Positions 2,771 to 49,918 of a stretch of DNA of 54,679 nt are shown piece after piece. Origin of the DNA: an uncultured Bacteroidales bacterium (lineage in GTDB: Bacteria; Bacteroidota; Bacteroidia; Bacteroidales; UBA932); the NCBI GenBank assembly GCA_937890845.1, contig CALADR010000255.1, forward strand, positions 1 to 54,679. Reading direction: 5' to 3'. The translations under genes and the position numbers were made by a program. Position 1 is the first letter of the stretch. Each line of letters begins with the position of its first letter. Under the pieces are notes generated by a model. The model was given only the letters and a program-made list of their open reading frames with translations. It ran no database searches and had not been told where the DNA came from.

Positions 2771-5260
2771 ATGACGATATCTTATAATTGGCTCAAGGAT
2801 TATCTTGAGTGCGATCTCACTGCAGAGCAGGTGGCCGAGGCTCTTACCTCCATCGGTCTTGAGGTCGATTCTCTGGAGCAGATTGAAGAAATTCCCGGCG
2901 GACTTGCCGGAGTCATAGTGGCAGAAGTCGTGGAATGTGTAGAGCATCCTGATTCGGACCATCTTCATATTACGAAGTTGAATACAGGAGAGCCTGAACT
3001 GCTTCAGGTCGTATGCGGAGCTCCGAATGTTGCCGCCGGACAGAAAGTGCTTTTGGCAACTGTCGGGACAAAGCTTGGTGAGGACTTTAAAATAAAAAAA
3101 TCAAAGATCAGGGGTGTAGAGTCCTTCGGTATGATTTGCGCCGAGGATGAACTCGGAATAGGCGAGTCTCATGACGGTATAATGGTGCTTGACCAGTCTG
3201 CAATACCGGGAACACCTGCAAAGGACTATCTGCATCTGGCTACAGACTATGTCATAGAAATAGGACTTACCGCCAACAGGGTCGATGCAGCATCGCATAT
3301 TGGTGTTGCCAGAGATTTGTATGCCTATCTTAGACTCAATAATATTCCTTGTCGTCTGATGATTCCTGATGTAACTTCATTTAAGGAGGGAACAGAAGGA
3401 ATGTGTTCAGAAACGGGTGACCTTAACGGTGCTATTCCTGTGGAGGTATGTGCCCTGGATGGCGCTCCTAGATATTTGGGCATTACAATAAAAGGAGTCA
3501 AGGTGGCGCCTTCTCCGGAATGGTTGCAGAAAAAGCTGCTGTCCATAGGCTTGAAACCTATTAATAATATAGTAGATATAACAAACTTCGTGCAGATGGA
3601 AACAGGACATCCTCTGCATGCTTTCGATGCCGCTGAAATAGGAGGACGTAAGGTCGTTGTGCGTAGGGCTGCTGAAGGAGAGAAGTTTGTAACTCTTGAC
3701 GGAATTGAGAGGACATTGTCGTCAGAAGATCTTATGATAGCAGACATTGAAAAGCCTATGTGTCTTGCAGGTGTCTTCGGAGGTGCCGTTTCCGGAGTAA
3801 AGGAAAGTACCGCCGATATCTTTCTTGAAAGTGCCTATTTCAATCCGGTATCTATCAGAAAGTCATCCAAGAGACACGGCCTTAAGACAGATGCATCCTT
3901 CAGAAATGAAAGAGGTGCTGATCCGCTCATTCCTGAATATGCCGCCAAGCGTGCTGCCCTTCTTATAGAGGAACTGGCAGGAGGAAAGGTCGTTGGAAAA
4001 GTACAGGAGGTTTATCCTGAAAAGATAGAAAAGAAGGTCGTAGAACTTGATTACGACAGAATAGAGGCTTTTATAGGCAAGAAAATAGGACATGATACTA
4101 TAGAGAAAATACTTGGATTTCTTGCATATGACTTCCTTGAAAGGCGTCAGGATGCAGACGGCAATCCTTCCGGATCACGTGTCGCTGTACCGTCTTATAT
4201 GGTGGATGTATATAGGGAATGTGATGTTGTTGAGGAAGTTCTGAGAATTTACGGATATAATAATATCGAACTTCCGTCAGGGATAAGAATGTCCGTGAAT
4301 GCCACAGCAAAGCCAGAGGCGGAAACTGTCAGGAATATCGTTTCAGATTTTCTGGCGGCAAACGGTTTTGTCGAAACGATGAACAATTCCCTTACTAAGG
4401 AGGATTACTATTCGCAACTCACTACCTTCCCTAAGGAAAAATGTGTGCATATTCTCAATCCGTTGAGTTCTGATCTGAATGTTATGAGGCAGACATTGCT
4501 TCTGAATGGTCTTGAAGTGATTTCATACAACCTTAACAGGCAGATTAACTCTCTTAAAATATTCGAATACGGCTCAGTTTACTCTTTTGATCCGAACGGA
4601 GATCCTGCGTTGTTGGATGCGTATAAAGAAAGTACTGCATATGCTTTGTTCATTACCGGTTCTTGCGAGAAGTCATGGTGTGCGGAACTTCACAAGGGCA
4701 GTTATTTTCAGTTGAAAGGATGTCTTGAACTTCTGTTGAAACGTTTCGGAGCTGACATATATTCATTGGAATATGACGCGGCGCCTTCTGACTTGTTCTC
4801 CGAAGGTCTTGTGTATAAATTGCCTGGTACAGCGGAGCCTCTTGCTGTAATGGGAACTGTTGCCAAGGCACGACTTAAGCAGTTTGATATAAAGCAGCCT
4901 GTATTTGCAGCAGAAATTAACTGGCCGGTTTTATTCGAGCTCGTTAAAAGGAATAGGGTCAAATATAGCGAACTTCCAAAATTCCCTGGCGTACGACGTG
5001 ACCTTGCTCTCCTTCTGGACGAAAACGTTGAGTATGCCCAGTTGCGCAAGGCTGCATTCAAGGCAGGTAAGAAACTTATAAAGAGTGTGACCTTGTTTGA
5101 TGTCTATAGAGGAGACAAGATTCCTGCAGGCAAGAAGCAGTATGCGATGGGGTTTGTTTTGCAAGATGCTGACAAGACATTGACAGACAATGAAGTTGAG
5201 AAAGTAATGTCTAAACTGCTTTCTGTGTTTGCTTCTGAGTTCGGAGCGTCATTGAGGTAG
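2771..5260 (+). CDS. pheT: Phenylalanine--tRNA ligase beta subunit
   Basis: MTISYNWL start, VCGAPNV, SFGMICAEDELG, B3/4 domain, C-terminal FDX-ACB (RRDLALL...FDVY); 829 aa. Confidence 0.97.
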   Translation: MTISYNWLKDYLECDLTAEQVAEALTSIGLEVDSLEQIEEIPGGLAGVIVAEVVECVEHPDSDHLHITKLNTGEPELLQVVCGAPNVAAGQKVLLATVGTKLGEDFKIKKSKIRGVESFGMICAEDELGIGESHDGIMVLDQSAIPGTPAKDYLHLATDYVIEIGLTANRVDAASHIGVARDLYAYLRLNNIPCRLMIPDVTSFKEGTEGMCSETGDLNGAIPVEVCALDGAPRYLGITIKGVKVAPSPEWLQKKLLSIGLKPINNIVDITNFVQMETGHPLHAFDAAEIGGRKVVVRRAAEGEKFVTLDGIERTLSSEDLMIADIEKPMCLAGVFGGAVSGVKESTADIFLESAYFNPVSIRKSSKRHGLKTDASFRNERGADPLIPEYAAKRAALLIEELAGGKVVGKVQEVYPEKIEKKVVELDYDRIEAFIGKKIGHDTIEKILGFLAYDFLERRQDADGNPSGSRVAVPSYMVDVYRECDVVEEVLRIYGYNNIELPSGIRMSVNATAKPEAETVRNIVSDFLAANGFVETMNNSLTKEDYYSQLTTFPKEKCVHILNPLSSDLNVMRQTLLLNGLEVISYNLNRQINSLKIFEYGSVYSFDPNGDPALLDAYKESTAYALFITGSCEKSWCAELHKGSYFQLKGCLELLLKRFGADIYSLEYDAAPSDLFSEGLVYKLPGTAEPLAVMGTVAKARLKQFDIKQPVFAAEINWPVLFELVKRNRVKYSELPKFPGVRRDLALLLDENVEYAQLRKAAFKAGKKLIKSVTLFDVYRGDKIPAGKKQYAMGFVLQDADKTLTDNEVEKVMSKLLSVFASEFGASLR

Positions 5261-41850: not shown

Positions 41851-41925
41851 GAAATTTATGCGTTTTGAAGCTCAGAAGTTATTCTGACAGCTTTTTGGTT
41901 TGCAGATGATATAAAACAGAAAAGT

Positions 41926-44461
41926 ATGAGACAGATTGTTTATTTTATTGCAGTCATATTTTTAGTGGCACAAATGTCTTATTATGCTGAAGCGGGCTCT
42001 TCCGGAAGAAATTATTTCCGCAGTGGCTCGGAAGATAAAATTACTGTACTGAAAGGGAAAGTTCTTTCAGGATCGTCTCCTCTTGAATTTGTTACTGTCG
42101 CGCTTTCAGACTCCAGCGGTACTGTGATAGCGGGAGCTACGACAGATTCTGCAGGTGTTTATCGTATAGGATTCCCTTCCAGTGCAGGAGATTCCAGATA
42201 TTTGAAACTTCTTTTTTCACTTGTCGGCTATAAAGACAAAGTTATGGTTTTCCCGGATTCAGGTATTTCCGGTCAGGGTACTGCAGATATTGTAAGTATT
42301 GCTTCTTTAGATGGTGGAGTTGCGGTGATTTCCCCTGTATCAATGGAGGAGGATGCCCGGATGCTCTCGGAAGCGGTTGTCTCAGGCAAGCGTGCGCTAG
42401 TGGAGCATCAGTTTGATAGGCTGGTCCTGAATGTGTCGGAACTCGCTGTAGCTCAGACTGGTGATGCACTGGATGTCTTGAAAAGCTCACCGGGGGTTAC
42501 TGTTGATAAAGACGGAAATGTAAAACTTAACGGCTCCTCTGTAGCTGTGTGGATTGACGGAAGGCCGTCCAATATGTCAGGGGCTGATCTCGAGGCATTT
42601 CTTAAAGGCAGCGAAGGCTCTTCCATCGAAAAGGTGGAACTTATAACCAATCCGTCCGCAAAGTATGATGCAGAGGGAAGCGGAGGTATCATCAATATAA
42701 AGACGCGCAAGGCATTTATGAAAGGATTCAGCGGTTCGCTGAGGGCAAATTACGGAATGAGATTCTCTCCGAGAACTGTTTATTCCGGAGACTTTTCCGC
42801 AAATCTTATGTACAGGACTGACAAGACCAATACATCTTTTCAGTACAACCCTTCTTATGGAGAGTATGTCTATGGTGCTGATGAATGGAAAACATATGGT
42901 CCTGAAAACAGGATGCAGCAGGAAAGCAGCTCAATGAGCAAGACTGCCTACAATTCCCATCAGATACGCCTTGGAAATGACTGGAACATTTCCCCGAAAG
43001 ATGTGTTGGGAGTGATTTTTACTGCTACGGTTACTCCGGACAACAGGACATACTACATCGCTCCCAATATAATTAAGGACTATATTGCAAGTGAGTCTGG
43101 AAGCAGGCTTCCGTACAGCGAGCTTTCCGGGCAGAACAAATCCGTTTCCAAAAATGACTACTATTCGTTGAATGTAAATTATACCAGGACATTCGACCAG
43201 TCAAAGAGTCAGGAACTTACTCTCAATGCCGATTATTGGAGGAACGGAAGCAGAAGCGAGAGAATTTTCAGAAACGAATATACTTTCATTTCACCCGAAG
43301 CAGCGGCGGCAGGTGTTGCAAGTGAGGGGTTTGACGACAATATGCGCAGGATTCTGGACTTGTACTCTTTCAAGGCGGATTATTCACAGTCATTCTGGAA
43401 GCAGACAGGCAGGGTAGAGGCCGGAGTGAAGGCTGCCTGGTCATCTACCAGAAACCGTTACGGCAAATACGGTTACGACTTTTCTGCAGGAGAACTGGAC
43501 AAGAATGCCCGGCGCAATGACTTTGACTATGACGAGCAGGTGTATGCAGCCTATGTCAATTTAGCTAAAATGTTTTCTCCCAAATGGAATGCACAGATAG
43601 GCCTTAGGGGAGAATATACTCTTCAGGACGGAGACTGGCTTATGACTTCATCAGACGGGCGCAAGAGCCACAAGGAATATTTCGATGTATTCCCTAGTGC
43701 ATTTGTAAGTTATCTTCCTTCTCAGAAAGTAGTTCTTACGGCCAATTACTCATATAGGATATTCTTCCGGAACTCTGTATACGCAGGGAAATATGGAACT
43801 TGAGCCATCCTATAACCACAACGTATCAATGACGGCTGTGCTTTTCAGCCGGCTTTCACTTACGGCAGGGTATAGCAGGACAAAGAATTTCAGTGATGTC
43901 CAGACTCCTATGGTTGATGAGAACGGAGTGATGGGGCTTGTCTTTTCCAATGCCGGAAACTATCAGATGGGGTATTTTTCAGCCTCGCTCTCTGAGCTTC
44001 CTCTTACCAAATGGTGGAATCTTACAGTCAGCGCCAATTACGGATATTCCGAGTTCAGAGCGTACAAGTCCGCTGCTACAGATGCTTTCGGCGGACACTC
44101 TTTCAATGCCTATCTCGCCACAACATTCTTTCTTCCGAAAAATTTCAAGTTAGGTGCTGACGGCTGGGTGATGACACCTATGTCAATGGGTTATTTCGAT
44201 ATGAAGGCAATGGGAATCCTCAATATGAGCCTTATCAAGACCATTTGGGACGGGAAGGGAACTATATCATTGTATCTTAATGATATACTTAATACCGGAT
44301 CTACGGATATGCTTATAAAGAACAATGGTAAAGTGACCTATTCCCTTAGTCAGAAAATGTCAACGAGAGGCTTCCGTATAGGTTTTGCCTGGAGGTTCGG
44401 AACCGCATCCCAACAGAGCCGCCGCAATGTCGGGAAACTGGATGAAGAATCCCGCCTGTAG
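41926..44461 (+). CDS. TonB-dependent-receptor-like outer-membrane beta-barrel, split by a frameshift/deletion at about 43760
   Basis: Signal peptide, CarboxypepD-reg-like N-domain, plug motif SPGVTVD...IEKVELITNPSAKYDAEGSGGIINI, GLRGEYT, FPSAF; second frame continues GNMELEP...FAWRFG...EESRL. Confidence 0.8.
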
Positions 44462-44548
44462 ATACCGTCAGCCGAGTACAGGAATTTTATGTTGAAATAT
44501 TAGGAATAGAACAAAAGTTTGCTAAATTTACAGGCAAATTATTAGCCT

Positions 44549-44986
44549 ATGGCAGCTTTTCCGTACTATCGTCAGATGGATTCTATGGACTGTGGGCCTA
44601 CTTGTCTTAAAATTATTGCAAAATTTTACGGCAAGAATCATAGTCTTCAGAGTCTGCGTGAGAAGTGCCATATCACAAATGCAGGAGTTTCTCTTGCCGG
44701 AATAGCGGAAGTAGCTGAAAATATCGGTTTCAGAACCATCAGTTTGAAAATTAAATGGGAAGTATTCAGGGATGAAATTCCTTTGCCCTGTATAGTATAT
44801 TGGCAGCAGGCACATTTTGTAGTGGTATATGAAATCAAACGTCGTAAGAATAGATGTGAAGTGTTGGTTTCTGACCCGGCTATAGGTCTTCTGAAATATG
44901 ATGAAGAGGATTTTAAGAAAGGCTTAGGCAGTCAATATGGCATAGTTCCAAAAATGACAAGGATGAGCTTGTCAGAAATCGTGTAG
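44549..44986 (+). CDS. Peptidase C39 domain (N-terminus of a peptidase-containing ABC transporter), without transporter body
   Basis: QMDSMDCGPTCL (Q9, C15), GVSLAGI..AENIGF, LPCIVYWQQAHFVVVY (His), SDPA.G (Asp); similarity ends at about FKKG. Confidence 0.85.
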   Translation: MAAFPYYRQMDSMDCGPTCLKIIAKFYGKNHSLQSLREKCHITNAGVSLAGIAEVAENIGFRTISLKIKWEVFRDEIPLPCIVYWQQAHFVVVYEIKRRKNRCEVLVSDPAIGLLKYDEEDFKKGLGSQYGIVPKMTRMSLSEIV

Positions 44987-45014
44987 AAATATTAACCTCT
45001 TTAAATGTGATATT

Positions 45015-47289
45015 ATGATAAGAACGGTCATTACACTATTAGTATCTTTTTTGTGTATTAGCATATATGCGCAGGACACAAATACGGATAAGAAAGTTGA
45101 AATCATCGGAAGAGTTACGACCGCTGCCGATGCTGAGATTGAAGGGGCTGTCATTGTCGCCACCGGTGTCGGCGGTGTTGCCGGAGCTACGGTTACTGAT
45201 TCTACCGGAAAATTCACTGTTTCCGTAAGTCTTTGCGACAGTCTTGTCGTAGAAATTTCGCACCTTATTTATGAAGATAGGACAGTACTTTTGTCCGAGA
45301 TTTCCGCACCGGTTGATCTTGGAACCATTATTCTATCAGAAAAAAAGGAGTCTATACAGGAAGCGGTAGTAACCAGCAGTTTCATCAAGATGAGAGGTAC
45401 TGATATGCTTGTGGATGTCAAGGGAAATCCGGATGCAAAAGGCAAGAATGCTCTGCAGTTCCTGAATACTCTCCCGGGAATTAACGGTTTGCACATATAT
45501 GGTCAGGGACTCTCAAAAGTATATATAAATGACAGGGAACTTAAGCTTCCTAATGATCAGCTCTACAGCTATGTTGCCAGTCTGAAGGCTGAAGATGTGC
45601 AGTCAATACAGATTGTGACCAGAAAAGGAGCCAAATATGAGGCCGGTCATAAGGGAGGTGTGATACGTATAAGGATGAGTAAATCAGATAACAAGAGGCT
45701 CTCCGGAACTCTTTCGGTCCCGGTTTCTGTAAATACCTATGACGGGGCAATAACGACAGATATTCCGTTCATGCTTAACTATACGAACGGAAAACTTTCT
45801 TCCTATACATTTGCGAGCTTCCACTATATGCAAAATGAGAATACAAACTCCAGACAGATTTATGAGAATCGGGAGGAATGGAGCAAATCAGACAGGACCT
45901 TTATGTCAATGATGCTGGATCAGAGCCTTATATATGACATATCAAAGCGACACTCCTTAGGCCTTGCCTTGAATGGCTTCTTCAAGCCTTTTGAAAGAGG
46001 AGGGGCAACGAGTTCTTCATATACGACAAACGATGAGATAACCTTGGGTACAGGAAATGCGACGCTTACATACGACTGGAATATAGGAGACAGAGGGTCG
46101 AATATTTCATTTGCCGGGGACTATATGTACAGCAGAGACAAATACACCAATATATATGAAAGCAGCTCTGATTATGAAAAAAACACTTCGGGCACTGACA
46201 AGAATACATATTCCGTAAAACTGGATGGAGAATATATCTTCAAGGACGAGATTTCGACACTGGGCGGAGGACTTTTCTACTTGGGAATGGATGCAGGCGA
46301 GGATTTCAGTCAGGCAAATGTGTCAAGCCGATTTGATTACAATGAAGCGATTTACGGAGCTTACGTAGATTTTTATTCTTCGTTTTTAGACGAATCCCTC
46401 GACCTTGAATTGGGACTTCGTTACGAAAGTTCCGATATTACGTGGAAGTATTCAGAAAACATAAATGACAGAGTGGGAAATTCTGACAGGCATAACAGCT
46501 TTTTCCCTACAGCATCACTTTCATACTTTTATCCTAATGGAAAGCATTATACATCATTGAGTTATGAGCGTTATATTGACAGACCTACCATGCTTTCATA
46601 CGATCCTGCCACATATAGAAGCGGAGACTGGAAGTTTTCGCAGGGAGCCATTTACCTGAAACCGGAGTTTGAGAACAGTCTTTCTTTGACACATACTATT
46701 AACAGCAGCCATACCCTGTCGCTGTCATATATCTGGACCAAAGACATATATGAAAGAAAACGGAAACCTTATAGTGACGGAAGACAATGTAGGTTCTTCA
46801 AGGAAAGCTGAGCTCTATGCAAATACTAAATTCTGGCTTGTAAAGAAATGGCTGTACGCGCGTCTGACCGGAATATTTGACTATACAGGCTATATCAGTA
46901 AGGATTATGGCAACACTGATACATTCAATGCATATCTTTTTGCCAACCTTAATCTTTATCTGCCTAAGTCTTGGGCAATAGGCGTCAGCGGACACTATAG
47001 GTCGCCCAGCCTCTCCCCTACACAAAGGTATTCACATAGATATGGACTGGATGCTGCAATAAGCAAGTCGATAAATAAAAAAATCACACTGTCTCTCAGT
47101 GCGAGGAATATACTCAACAACGATTTTACGATGACATCAAGAATAAGCGGTGTGAATTACGAATATACCAAACACAGTAATTTCAGTACGGTAACACTAA
47201 CATTTGCCTATAACTTCGGTGTGTCCAACTTCTATGCAAAGAAGGCACACGGCAACAGTGATGTGCGTGAAAGAAGCAGCGGGAGATAG
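45015..47289 (+). CDS. Second outer-membrane beta-barrel protein, split by a frameshift at about 46750
   Basis: Signal peptide, VTDSTGKF CarboxypepD-reg-like domain, LNTLPGI...GAKYEAG..GGVIRI plug-like motif, LGLRYE, FFPTASL, LKPEF; second frame ends NILN...FAYNFG...VRERSSGR. Confidence 0.75.
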
Positions 47290-47302
47290 GCTATACCTTA
47301 AA

Positions 47303-47550
47303 ATGAACTTTATTATGGAGTAAGCCGAAAAGCCATTGCCATTCTCTCTCCCGAAGAAAGGAATAACACTTTAGGAGGAGAAATAAATGATGTAAGCAGA
47401 GCAAATGAAGAATGTTCTAACAATGAGGTTTGCAGGCGTAATGGTTATTGCGCAAATAATAAAGGCAAGTGCATTGGGAATGGTCGGTGTGTAGATGATA
47501 TTATCATTATACCTCCAACAAACCCGGCAAATTGTTTTTGTCAAGTTTAG
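47303..47550 (+). CDS. Putative RiPP/bacteriocin precursor: double-Gly leader plus Cys/Asn-repeat core (start needs a 1-nt correction)
   Basis: Not in the ORF track. Frame 47302-47550 reads NELYYGVSRKAIAILSPEERNNTLGG|EINDVSRANEECSNNEVCRRNGYCANNKGKCIGNGRCVDDIIIIPPTNPANCFCQV*. The nearest ATG (47303) is out of frame by one base. Confidence 0.72.
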
Positions 47551-47585
47551 TGAAACTTAGTGTTTCGCGATTTTTTCTATTAAAG

Positions 47586-47637
47586 CGTTGAAATGAAGGA
47601 GATTAGTGACATGTCACTAATCTCCTTCATTTCAACG
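47586..47637. repeat. Perfect 52-bp palindrome (probable bidirectional terminator / cassette boundary)
   Basis: CGTTGAAATGAAGGAGATTAGTGACA|TGTCACTAATCTCCTTCATTTCAACG is its own reverse complement. Confidence 0.9.
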
Positions 47638-48388
47638 TGAGTTCGACAGGGCAGTGGTCGGAGCCGAAGATTTCGTTATGGATGGATGCTCCTTCAAGCC
47701 TGTCTTTCAATCCTTTGGAGACAAGGAAGTAGTCAATGCGCCAGCCTGCGTTCTTCTCTCGTGAACGGAATCGGTATGACCACCAGGAGTAAATCCCTTC
47801 GGCATCAGGATAGAAGTGACGGAATGTATCCGTAAACCCGCTGTCAAGCAGTATTGAAAACTTCTCCCTTTCCTCATCGGTGAACCCTGCGTTCCTTCTG
47901 TTGGTCTTAGGGTTCTTGAGGTCTATTTCCTTGTGGGCTACGTTGAGGTCACCGCAGACAATTACCGGTTTCGTCTTTTCCAGAGAAAGGAGGTAGTTTC
48001 TGAAGTCATCCCCCCATTTCATCCTGTATTCCAGCCTGGCCAGTTCATCCTGCGAGTTCGGTGTATAGACATTCACCAGATAGAAATCTTCCATTTCCAG
48101 GGTTATTACCCTGCCTTCGTGGTCGTGCTCGTCTATCCCTATGCCGTAACTTACTGACAAAGGCTCTTTTCTTGTGAAAATGGCTGTGCCGGAATATCCT
48201 TTTTTATCTGCATAGTTCCAGTATGACCTGTATCCCTCGAAGACGGCATCCAGCTGTCCTGCCTGCATTTTGGTTTCCTGAAGGCAGAAGAAGTCGGCGT
48301 CAAGAGTCTTGAAACTTTCCTGAAAACCTTTTGTGTAGCAGGCTCTAAGCCCGTTTACATTCCATGATATGAATTTTAAAGGCTCCAT
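47627..48388 (-). CDS. xth: Exodeoxyribonuclease III (ExoA/Xth)
   Basis: [52 protein letters not shown]; own ATG at 48388; 253 aa. Confidence 0.93.
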
Positions 48389-49918
48389 TCTGTTCCGTCT
48401 TTTGTGTTCCTTGAGAGTGTCGCGGATTCTGTCGCTGGCAGCCCAGTCTTTGGCTTCCTTGGCAGCCTTGCGGCTTTCAAGTACCATTCCCATAAGTCCG
48501 TCAATCACTTTTTCCGCCTTTCCGCCTGCCGCTTCCTCATCTACGAGTCCTAAAACTCCGGAAACGATATCGTCAAACAGTCTGAGAAGTGCTGTCAGGT
48601 CGTTTTTGTCAAATGTGCGTTTCTTGTCCTTGGCTGCATTGATGAGTCTCACTGCATCAAACAGCTGGGCTACTGCAACAGGTGTATTGAGGTCATCGCA
48701 GAGTGCTTCATATACTTTTTCGCAGATAGCATTGACTTCGGCAGATGCGCTGTTGCAGACCTCCGGTGCGACATCGGTTATGAATTCGCCGTATGAAAGT
48801 GCTGATGCACTATGGCCGCCTGTCCCTTTTACGTCAGATGATATTCCTGCAGACGCAGCCATTTCCCTCAGGTCTTTTGCTGCCTGCATTATTTTCCTGT
48901 ATCCTTTTTCCGCTGCCTGAAGTGCTTCGTTGCTGAAGTCCAGAGTGCTGCGGTAGTGGGCCTGAAGAATGAAGAAACGGATGGTCATAGGGCTGTATGC
49001 CTGCTCAAGAAGCTTGTGGGTTCCTTCAAACAGTTCCTGTAGGGTGATGAAGTTGCCCAAGGATTTTCCCATCTTCTTTCCGTTGATGGTTATCATATTG
49101 TTGTGCATCCAGTATTTCACTCCTCCTGTGCCTCTTGATGCAGTGTTCTGCGCAAGCTCGCATTCGTGGTGAGGGAACATAAGGTCCATTCCGCCTCCGT
49201 GTATGTCAAACTCTGTTCCCAGGTACTTTTCGCTCATTGCGGAGCATTCCAGATGCCATCCCGGGAAACCTTCGCTCCAAGGAGACGGCCATTTCATTAT
49301 ATGTTCAGGTGAAGCCTTCTTCCACAATGCAAAGTCGTATGGCGCGTGCTTGTCGCTCTGTCCGTCAAGCTCCCTTGTACCCTCCTTTGTCTCGTCAAGA
49401 GTCCTTCCTGAAAGGATACCGTATCTGTGGTCCGCATCGTACTTCCTTACATCAAAATATACGGACCCGTTGCTGATGTAGGCATAGCCTGAGTCAAGGA
49501 TTTTCCTTACAAGGTCTATCTGCTCGATTATATGGCCTGATGCCCTCGGCTCGATTGAAGGCGGTGCTACATTCAGCATCCTCATGGCTTCGTGGTAGCG
49601 TAGCGTGTATGTCTGCACCACTTCCATAGGCTCCAGCTGCTCCAGTCTTGCCTTTTTTGCGATCTTGTCTTCTCCTTCGTCGGCATCGTGCTCAAGATGC
49701 CCTACATCTGTTATGTTCCTGACATAGCGTACTTTATATCCCAAATGTCTGAGAAGGCGTACCAGCACATCGTATGTAACTCCAGGTCTTGCGTGTCCCA
49801 GATGGGCGTCGCCATAGACAGTCGGTCCGCATACGTAAAGTCCCACGTGGTCCTTGTTTATCGGCTCGAAAAGCACTTTCATTCTGGAAAGCGTATCAGT
49901 TATATAAAAATTTCTCAT
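48376..49918 (-). CDS. cysS: Cysteine--tRNA ligase (frameshift near the C-terminus at about 48406)
   Basis: [44 protein letters not shown]; native ending TKDGTEWSL* lies in another frame at 48405-48376; -7 box TAACTTTG 49995-49988. Confidence 0.93.

Follow-up and report, generated by a model that had tools for sequence, protein, structure and literature searches.

A probable eroded accessory island for a cysteine-rich, leader-cleaved peptide between a TonB-receptor-like barrel gene and xth in an uncultured Bacteroidales bacterium

The 54,679-nucleotide (nt) stretch of DNA considered here (hereafter the window; contig CALADR010000255.1 of assembly GCA_937890845.1, from an uncultured Bacteroidales bacterium) holds, between a TonB-receptor-like outer-membrane barrel gene (barrel 1) and xth, three co-oriented genes that an initial annotation, made from the sequence alone, had presented as a candidate cassette for peptide maturation and export: a C39 peptidase domain, a second outer-membrane barrel (barrel 2), and a precursor with a double-glycine (GG) leader. 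The question raised by this locus is whether these genes still constitute a working system and, if they do not, what kind of system they derive from. Comparison with related genomes and with contigs from independent samples points, with a good degree of confidence, to positions 44458–47637 being an eroded accessory island, the remnant of a locus for a ribosomal, leader-cleaved, Cys-rich peptide, which is non-functional in the form assembled here.

Pfam searches, translation and a palindrome search confirmed the three genes, the barrel gene on their left, the convergent xth on their right and the closing palindrome. Four plus-strand features, namely the C39 open reading frame (ORF), the barrel gene, the GG peptide frame and the palindrome, fill 44.5–47.6 kb, and all three genes of the block are present yet damaged. 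In six of ten genus loci barrel 1 was found to be the direct convergent neighbour of xth with ~0–140 nt between them, and the similarity of the window to the intact barrel 1 of a related assembly, UMGS884 (G083, contig C1), stopped at 44457, just before the barrel 1 stop codon at 44459–44461; the short gap in relatives and this end of similarity together place the inserted block, of 3.2 kb, at ~44458–47637, in agreement with the extent originally drawn. The annotation had also reported that no ABC exporter body, HlyD adaptor or modifying enzyme is encoded at the locus, and none was found between 44458 and 47637, the absence of an HlyD-type adaptor ORF being established from the ORF list and Pfam. 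The check on G+C content that it had recommended was uninformative, with 0.428 for the island and 0.429 for the remainder of the window. Genome-wide negative results reported below hold within the source assembly, which consists of 417 contigs and is 85% complete. Two further sources of comparison were available: contigs from four public runs belonging to four studies (X1, X2, X8 and X11), aligned on window positions 41900–47700, and the corresponding locus of UMGS884 (L031).

The C39 ORF (44549–44986, plus strand) matched PF03412 at E 2.3e-32 (112 bits against a cut-off of 22), and its catalytic Cys (DCGP) and His (AHF) aligned with those of full-length exporters, including one of 749 amino acids (aa) to which it is 68% identical over residues 2–125. 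The C39 assignment therefore stands for the domain, but what encodes it is a stub of only 145 aa, equivalent to the first fifth of a peptidase-ABC exporter, compared with the 727–749 aa of relatives. Because the ORF stops at that point, the membrane domain and ATPase are absent from the chain, and the NCBIfam models of full-length exporters covered the stub by their first 120 positions only, at 48–71 bits against cut-offs of 500–853 (TIGR03796, 70.6 against 853; TIGR01193, 52.1 against 524). The stub is thus like the peptidase-containing ATP-binding cassette (ABC) exporters (PCATs) described by those two models, examples of which are PCAT1, CvaB and LahT, in its N-terminal C39 domain with catalytic Cys and His, and unlike them in the lack of membrane and ATPase domains and of an adaptor. 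C39 homologs were detected in 9 of 100 other genus genomes, mostly in open frames of 726–748 aa. Eight of ten genus exporter places were scanned, six of which encoded the complete series of C39, ABC_membrane and ABC_tran domains and seven of which adjoined an HlyD adaptor; at the level of the family, 8 of the 12 exporter loci examined had such an adaptor next to the exporter.

The route by which the exporter gene was truncated could be read from the other samples. Contigs from X1 and X2 carry ~3002–3003 additional letters between two copies of the octamer at 44941–44948, from which it follows that the window has suffered a ~3.0-kb deletion between 8-nt repeats at this site. X8 has the form seen in the window, X11 is without a C39 domain altogether, and L031 keeps only the first 11 codons of the exporter gene. 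At 90% identity, the cluster containing the stub comprised 145-aa forms (17 + 40 + 1, or 58 contigs), a 380-aa form (38 contigs) and single forms of 195, 198 and 205 aa, a 90-aa form (8 + 1 contigs) falling in a separate cluster. The 380-aa variant, P0279, runs on from ...GSQYGIV into the exporter membrane domain and is 63% identical to the 749-aa exporter up to residue 367, after which 13 unrelated residues mark a frameshift, and no ATPase follows. In its C39 domain followed by an ABC membrane domain this longer variant matches the PCATs, as do the genus relatives in their pairing with HlyD. Neither the 90% cluster nor a search for longer forms yielded a full-length version (at least 700 aa), the best full-length match in the latter being 68% identical to the stub, and the exporter gene is broken in all variants of the lineage that were seen. 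The tail of the stub ORF was also compared with the C-termini of adaptors and exporters as a candidate remnant of either, and resembled neither.

Of the explanations offered originally for the missing components, complementation in trans was not borne out, as the genome yielded no second C39 domain, no exporter body nearer than a 31%-identical generic ABC protein and no maturase homolog. Erosion, on the other hand, is strongly supported by the ABC body retained in X1 and X2, by the 380-aa variant, and by the occurrence elsewhere of an intact 94-aa precursor.

Barrel 2 (45015–47289, plus strand; PF14905 and CarboxypepD_reg) was annotated correctly as an outer-membrane barrel, but it is represented in the window by two overlapping ORFs of 598 and 179 aa (45015–46811 and 46750–47289), which scored 89.8 and 72.9 bits with PF14905 (cut-off 27). 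An intact 762-aa form, 99% identical to that of the window, scored 165.9 bits. Relative to this form the window lacks 14 nt at 46744–46753 that are present in all four runs and in L031, and the barrel 2 split is due to this deletion. Split forms of other kinds (632 + 129 aa, 346 + 394 aa and others) were recorded on 12–24 contigs each, and a contig scan of genomes for barrel 2 relatives returned one locus only, that of UMGS884. The plug ascribed to barrel 2 had been misplaced: no Plug domain (PF07715) was detectable in it or in two orthologs, even at E <= 1, and the Plug match in the window belongs to barrel 1.

An AlphaFold2 model of barrel 2, built on an eight-sequence alignment, had a mean predicted local distance difference test score (pLDDT) of 74.3 and a predicted template-modelling (TM) score of 0.63. 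An N-terminal Ig-like domain was followed by a region of low confidence (residues 112–224, pLDDT <50) and a large all-beta barrel (residues 228–740, pLDDT mostly 80–92); inspection by eye noted a ...EAVV... stretch behind the N-terminal domain of the intact form. The top Foldseek matches in the PDB were TonB-dependent transporters only (E 1e-16 to 1e-13, TM 0.42–0.52), among them Cir, PqqU, FoxA, PhuR, ChuA, FyuA and OprC, with a probability of 1.00 for Cir, PqqU, FoxA and others, and the model therefore predicts a TonB-dependent-transporter fold. The best single match of the model was Cir bound to the receptor-binding domain of microcin V (9nn6), and the barrel 2 gene likewise adjoins that of a secreted peptide. 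Solved structures with this fold are those of importers and bacteriocin receptors, and we know of no exporter among them; the predicted fold thus favours import over export, and the role of peptide exporter or display factor first proposed for barrel 2 is not sustained. Barrel 2 differs from TonB-dependent transporters that handle peptides, such as MbnT, which handles methanobactin, in that Pfam detected no Plug domain and in a plug region modelled at the low pLDDT given above.

The peptide frame (47302–47550, plus strand) reads ...AIAILSPEERNNTLGG, followed by a Cys-rich tail of 56 residues. The GG lies at 47374–47379 and the stop codon at 47548–47550, and the core behind the leader end ...ILSPEERNNTLGG is 56 aa long and contains five N-x-x(-x)-C motifs. 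The proposed GG precursor is accordingly real as a frame with ...TLGG ahead of a Cys-rich tail, but it has no means of being started: no ATG, GTG or TTG occurs in the frame between the upstream stop and the GG, and the short ATG ORF MNFIME (47303–47323) belongs to another frame. A search of 1.84 billion representative proteins returned eight hits at E <= 1e-3, six of which were peptides of 70–94 aa. The last 69 residues of one of these, the intact 94-aa P0202, are identical to the window frame, and it possesses ~25 further N-terminal residues, including the start. The contig from X1 carries 104 additional letters at 47336, the position at which similarity to P0202 begins, whereas X2, X8 and X11 are the same as the window. 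Taken together, the additional N-terminus of P0202 and the 104 letters of X1 indicate that the peptide gene of the window has lost its 5' end (~25 codons). The intact form was found on five contigs only, and L031 is without 47324–47519. A terminator-like hairpin and T run (47550–47578, plus strand), located directly 3' of the peptide stop codon, is also present in L031; site counts in the promoter and terminator scan were at chance level, so that position alone speaks for this hairpin.

Alignment of six family members revealed invariant residues F24, L27, G37 and G38, the pairs N47/C50, N53/C56, N59/C62, N65/C69 and N72/C75, and G60 after N59. All five N-x-x(-x)-C pairs were thus invariant in each of the six, and all five are kept in the window frame. 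The leader displayed an SGGF motif followed by (I/V)L(S/N)..E....GG. In treating the C39 domain and the GG leader as matching enzyme and substrate classes the initial annotation was reasonable, but a curated GG model was passed by one member only, and barely. With TIGR01847, P0207 scored 15.8 bits (cut-off 15.7) and P0205 13.5, no match being obtained for P0202, P0206, P0208, P0209 or the window frame, even though the GG itself is invariant across the family. With TIGR04149, scores were 8–15.5 bits (P0207 being best) against a cut-off of 25, with none for P0202 or the window frame. The family is like the precursors described by these two models in the small size of the peptide, its occurrence in Bacteroidales and a leader that ends in GG, and differs in the second, upstream SGGF motif of the leader and in the failure of P0202 and the window frame to match. 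Pfam and NCBIfam gave a sub-threshold EGF match only. In the ESM Atlas the best match was the gamma subunit of quinohemoprotein amine dehydrogenase, which is thioether-crosslinked; at 0.86 the score fell below the 0.9 bar, and the match is for that reason a lead only. The literature searched held no description of the peptide family or of a pairing of ranthipeptides with TonB-type proteins, a graspetide survey alone being surfaced. The family is a rare one and is not in the curated libraries searched.

Among 400 genomes of the bacterial family only one other, G814, was found to have a member of the peptide family, and it provided clues to the chemistry of the peptide. There the peptide frame lies ~100 nt upstream of a gene for a 427-aa radical S-adenosylmethionine (SAM) protein whose best NCBIfam matches were all sub-threshold SPASM peptide maturases (TIGR04463, Clo7bot, PapB, CefB and QhpD). 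No homolog of this enzyme was found in the island, G000 or G083 (E <= 1e-5). In streptococci, the radical SAM enzyme NxxcB forms an Asn–Cys beta-thioether in an NxxC motif, according to the part of PMC9389541 that was consulted. Since a relative of the peptide lies directly upstream of a radical SAM/SPASM maturase gene, the locus was most likely one for a thioether-crosslinked peptide, and by analogy the ancestral peptide would most likely have been crosslinked in this way. With NxxcA and NxxcB and with ranthipeptides, as far as they are described in those consulted portions, the family shares the Asn–Cys motif, of which it has five N-x-x(-x)-C pairs; it differs in phylum and leader, in the tandem arrangement of its five motifs and in being known here from genes alone. 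The G814 enzyme falls below the cut-off of all curated maturase families, and none was found in the genome of the window.

In its ancestral form the pathway might then have run as follows. A precursor with a double-glycine leader and five Asn-x-x-Cys motifs would have been made and crosslinked by a radical SAM/SPASM maturase, most likely through Cys–Asn thioethers like those formed by NxxcB; the peptidase-containing ABC exporter would have cleaved it behind the presumed GG site and exported it; and the adjacent barrel may have acted outside as a receptor for peptide uptake, or as a receptor-type immunity factor, not as an exporter. With a 145-aa stub, a precursor that has lost 104 nt together with its start, a frameshifted barrel and no maturase found, this pathway cannot work in the assembly, and the cassette, as a pseudogenised island, has no place among the biosynthetic or export systems of the organism.

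The last of these proposed steps depends on a tie between barrel and peptide. The two are adjacent in this species, and each is rare: barrel 2 orthologs were detected in 1 of 400 genus genomes, 0 of 400 from the order and 3 of 400 from the family, and the single family genome out of 400 with the peptide (G814) is one of the three with a barrel 2 relative. Moreover, the peptide P0205 and P0006, a barrel ortholog with 43% identity, have their longest contig, of 55,666 nt, in common, and P0006 occurs on no other. More loosely, a PF14905 or CarboxypepD_reg barrel lay within two genes of the exporter in 4 of 12 family exporter loci (L025, L029, L136 and L131). Related genomes are not independent samples, and hence no exact probability can be attached to the coincidence; a functional tie is judged to have roughly an even chance, or a slightly better one. 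Should it hold, import, reception or immunity would be a much more likely role for the barrel than export.

Several observations weigh against the reading of the block as an eroded peptide island with these attributes. The window peptide passed no curated model of a GG leader or of a ribosomally synthesised and post-translationally modified peptide (RiPP). The link to a maturase comes from one locus, G814, where the peptide frame is also without a start codon and its 5' end abuts a copy of a dispersed repeat, and the ~3.0-kb segment of X1 and X2 could, beyond the exporter part represented by residues 134–380 of P0279, hold a maturase or an adaptor. A continuous row of barrel, peptide and maturase genes in G814, obtained by joining the end of contig C16 to the start of C32 through a 100-nt overlap, was dropped; the overlap is the dispersed repeat, of which there are at least 40 copies, four of them exact and at contig ends. 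Barrel 2 relatives occur without the peptide in G835 and G1102, and also in G083. Among 79 metagenome loci of distant barrel homologs (916 kb, 40 of the loci being at least 10 kb), a profile search found none with a C39 domain or the peptide, a result with no bearing on close orthologs. Intact barrel 2 was found on 61 contigs (among 15 of 35 cluster members listed) and the peptide on the five already mentioned, an excess equally compatible with a function independent of the peptide and with retention of a receptor. Finally, the 14-nt gap of barrel 2, gaps of 41 and 18 nt in barrel 1 and perhaps a fusion of cysS with xth (all described below) may be faults of the assembly, and the real strain would then possess both barrels in intact form.

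The alternative that survives best, unlikely but deserving of serious attention, is that barrel 2 is unrelated to the peptide, being an ordinary nutrient or metal TonB-dependent transporter that rides on the same island. The 79 distant loci, the three genomes with a barrel and no peptide, and the surplus of intact barrel contigs all suit this alternative, as does the identity of the Foldseek neighbours of the model, which are importers of siderophores, haem, copper and pyrroloquinoline quinone. It leaves unexplained why barrel orthologs and peptide, both very rare, should coincide in three lineages. The recommended survey of barrel neighbours gave a divided answer, the distant homologs having no link to C39 domains or the peptide and the close orthologs co-occurring with the peptide in three lineages. 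At the opposite extreme lies a more elaborate proposal, to which a distinctly low probability is assigned, namely that the five-fold NxxC peptide and the TonB-like barrel form a secreted-peptide/receptor pair in gut Bacteroidales, in which the thioether-caged peptide is exported and then re-imported or sensed through the barrel, as a metal carrier or a signal, while strains that no longer produce it retain the receptor and are 'cheaters' or have orphan immunity. If true, the pair would represent an undescribed peptide public good or bacteriocin–receptor system in the phylum. The recurring pairing of peptide and barrel in any event offers a handle on the role of PF14905 barrels in Bacteroidetes peptide loci, which has so far been predicted from neighbourhoods.

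A second and improbable alternative concerns the chemistry, and would make the peptide an unmodified, disulfide-knotted bacteriocin in the style of bacteroidetocin instead of a radical SAM substrate. No maturase was found, either within the assembled island or in the rest of the genome, the number and spacing of Cys residues would permit disulfides, and a neighbouring exporter locus in the genus (L024) encodes a fusion of C39 with a VKOR thiol oxidoreductase. Disulfides do not, however, explain five invariant Asn residues, each located three or four places before an invariant Cys, nor does this alternative accommodate the SPASM-type radical SAM gene that follows the G814 member; the thioether-crosslinked look-alike retrieved by the language model also points away from it, as a lead only. 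The ancestral peptide is best placed within a known kind, that of PCAT-exported, probably radical-SAM-crosslinked, Cys-rich peptides, in which the new elements are the precursor family and its unexplained pairing with a TonB-like barrel. As an uncatalogued family with a GG leader and five NxxC motifs, these precursors give the search for radical SAM RiPPs in gut Bacteroidales a concrete target.

A third alternative, considered quite unlikely, is that the cassette is intact in the living strain and that its breaks are artefacts of a fragmented metagenome-assembled genome where strains differ. The assembly is indeed fragmented, as the contig count and completeness given above attest, and the window differs from all other material at several points. 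Barrel 1 (41926–44461, plus strand; PF14905, Plug and CarboxypepD_reg), on the left flank and outside the island, is also split in the window, into pieces at 41926–43803 and 43793–44461. Missing from the window but present in all four runs are 41 nt at 43759–43761 (38 letters and an overlap of 3 nt), which by arithmetic bring both barrel 1 ORFs into one frame, and 18 nt after 44090. The 41-, 18- and 14-nt gaps, located within 3 kb, were seen only in this assembly, being absent from every other run and from L031, and X1, which has all the pieces missing from the window, departs from it besides in only three listed substitutions over 5.8 kb. The gaps cluster in ~5 kb, and window genes outside the damaged region appear whole. 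Against an artefact must be set the fact that independent runs from other studies share the end points of the two larger deletions (3.0 kb and 104 nt in X8; 104 nt in X2 and X11), that the 145-aa stub is present on 58 contigs while the long exporter form is itself frameshifted (380 aa, 38 contigs), and that no full-length exporter of the lineage was found. To our knowledge, moreover, De Bruijn assemblers do not make deletions of 14–41 nt without read support. Independent samples also have the truncated exporter and both larger deletions (~3.0 kb and 104 nt), and these are real.

Contig counts suggest an order of loss in which exporter and peptide went first and the barrel last. Independent deletions and frameshifts have struck exporter, precursor and barrel in different samples of one species, and the locus presents gene loss in progress.

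The weakest alternative, a working minimal cassette in which C39 would act as a free-standing protease on the GG peptide and leave its export or display to the barrel, is scarcely credible: its genes are co-oriented and closely spaced, the stub retains the entire C39 domain with its Cys and His, barrels lie within two genes of the exporter in the 4 of 12 family loci noted above, and PF14905 or TonB-receptor barrels are enriched in Bacteroidetes graspetide loci, where the consulted sections of PMC8939145 predict export, but the start-less peptide frame and the frameshifted barrel contradict it for this sequence, no carrier for the peptide across the inner membrane was found in the genome, the barrel fold is of importer type, and sister strains show still more advanced decay of the stub, of which 90 aa or 11 codons remain. 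The same graspetide loci (Makarova et al. 2022, PMC8939145) resemble the present one, as far as the sections seen describe them, in placing a PF14905 barrel beside a Bacteroidetes RiPP precursor and export genes, and differ in that they are ATP-grasp systems with predicted export, while here there is no ATP-grasp gene and the predicted fold argues for import.

The site occupied by the island is, as the relatives compared show, a recurrent insertion site. Besides the six genus loci in which barrel 1 and xth directly adjoin, and which lack the 44.5–47.6 kb block, a point that the initial annotation had proposed to check, two of the ten, from two other species, held 4.9 and 7.2 kb of unrelated accessory cargo in the gap, and in the remaining two no xth occurred within the stretch examined. 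Profiles for C39, the ABC exporter body and the peptide gave no matches in the ten barrel 1 loci. Orthologs of barrel 1 were present in 29 of 200 other genus genomes (E <= 1e-40) in open frames of ~820–950 aa. The upstream TonB-receptor-like gene flanks the block as first described, but it is no member of the cassette: across the genus it is a conserved gene that neighbours xth on the chromosome. In the assembly it is also split. In G002, which has no barrel, a lysyl-phosphatidylglycerol-synthase-like gene lies 400 nt from xth.

On the right, the island is bounded by a perfect 52-nt palindrome (47586–47637; 26 + 26 nt with no spacer), which has a folding energy of −47.8 kcal/mol (z −9.95) and occurs nowhere else in the genome. 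The stop codon of xth and the three codons before it lie in the right arm, and xth ends ...ELTLK in the window and ...ELTLR in L168; no such palindrome was present between barrel 1 and xth in the six relatives read, and the contigs of all four runs break at 47596–47637. Beyond it, cysS and xth form a single in-frame ORF of 763 aa (47627–49918, minus strand; ORF list, Pfam and NCBIfam). In relatives, CysS ends ...ALGIQIKDTKDG...E and a stop, and a separate xth begins at least 15 nt downstream, whereas the window is without the last ~19 CysS codons and the stop. The joint is either a real CysS–Xth fusion or a small deletion peculiar to the assembly, and the loss of those codons is probably, like the three gaps, private to this assembly.

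A number of minor observations were made in the same genomes. In UMGS884 (L166), the intact barrel 1 on contig C1 is followed by SusC/SusD-like genes, and on contig C53 (L031 1–9340) a second copy of the last 412 nt of barrel 1 (99.8% identical) precedes the decayed island, behind a DeoR gene and two unknown genes; this duplicated end reflects either a rearrangement or the presence of two strains in one bin. The cargo of the two other occupied gaps consisted of an AbiEii/DUF6088 pair in G100 (L172 3800–8700) and, in G038 (L175 1250–8450), a 681-aa radical SAM-SPASM protein with AAA_14/DUF4143 and Schlafen-AlbA_2 genes. The dispersed repeat of G814 (L134 13860–13999, L124 1–160) is ~160 nt long with 22-nt terminal inverted repeats, resembles a miniature inverted-repeat transposable element, and has many of its copies at contig ends.

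The genus proved to be rich in diverse peptide-export loci. In L024, L025 and L026, Porph_ging genes (GLPGLI-type), in runs of as many as three, were located beside full-length C39-ABC exporters and HlyD, as was a C39-VKOR fusion, while radical SAM, LanM and DUF4932 genes adjoined other exporters in L023, L028 and L135. Full-length exporters were also found to be adjoined by two other small ORFs whose leaders are of GG type, which have no relation to the NxxC family and no Pfam or NCBIfam match, one of 70 aa with ...EMNEVLG... (L137 176–388; G835:C66) and one of 91 aa with ...EMAELKGG... (L135 954–1226; G814:C53).

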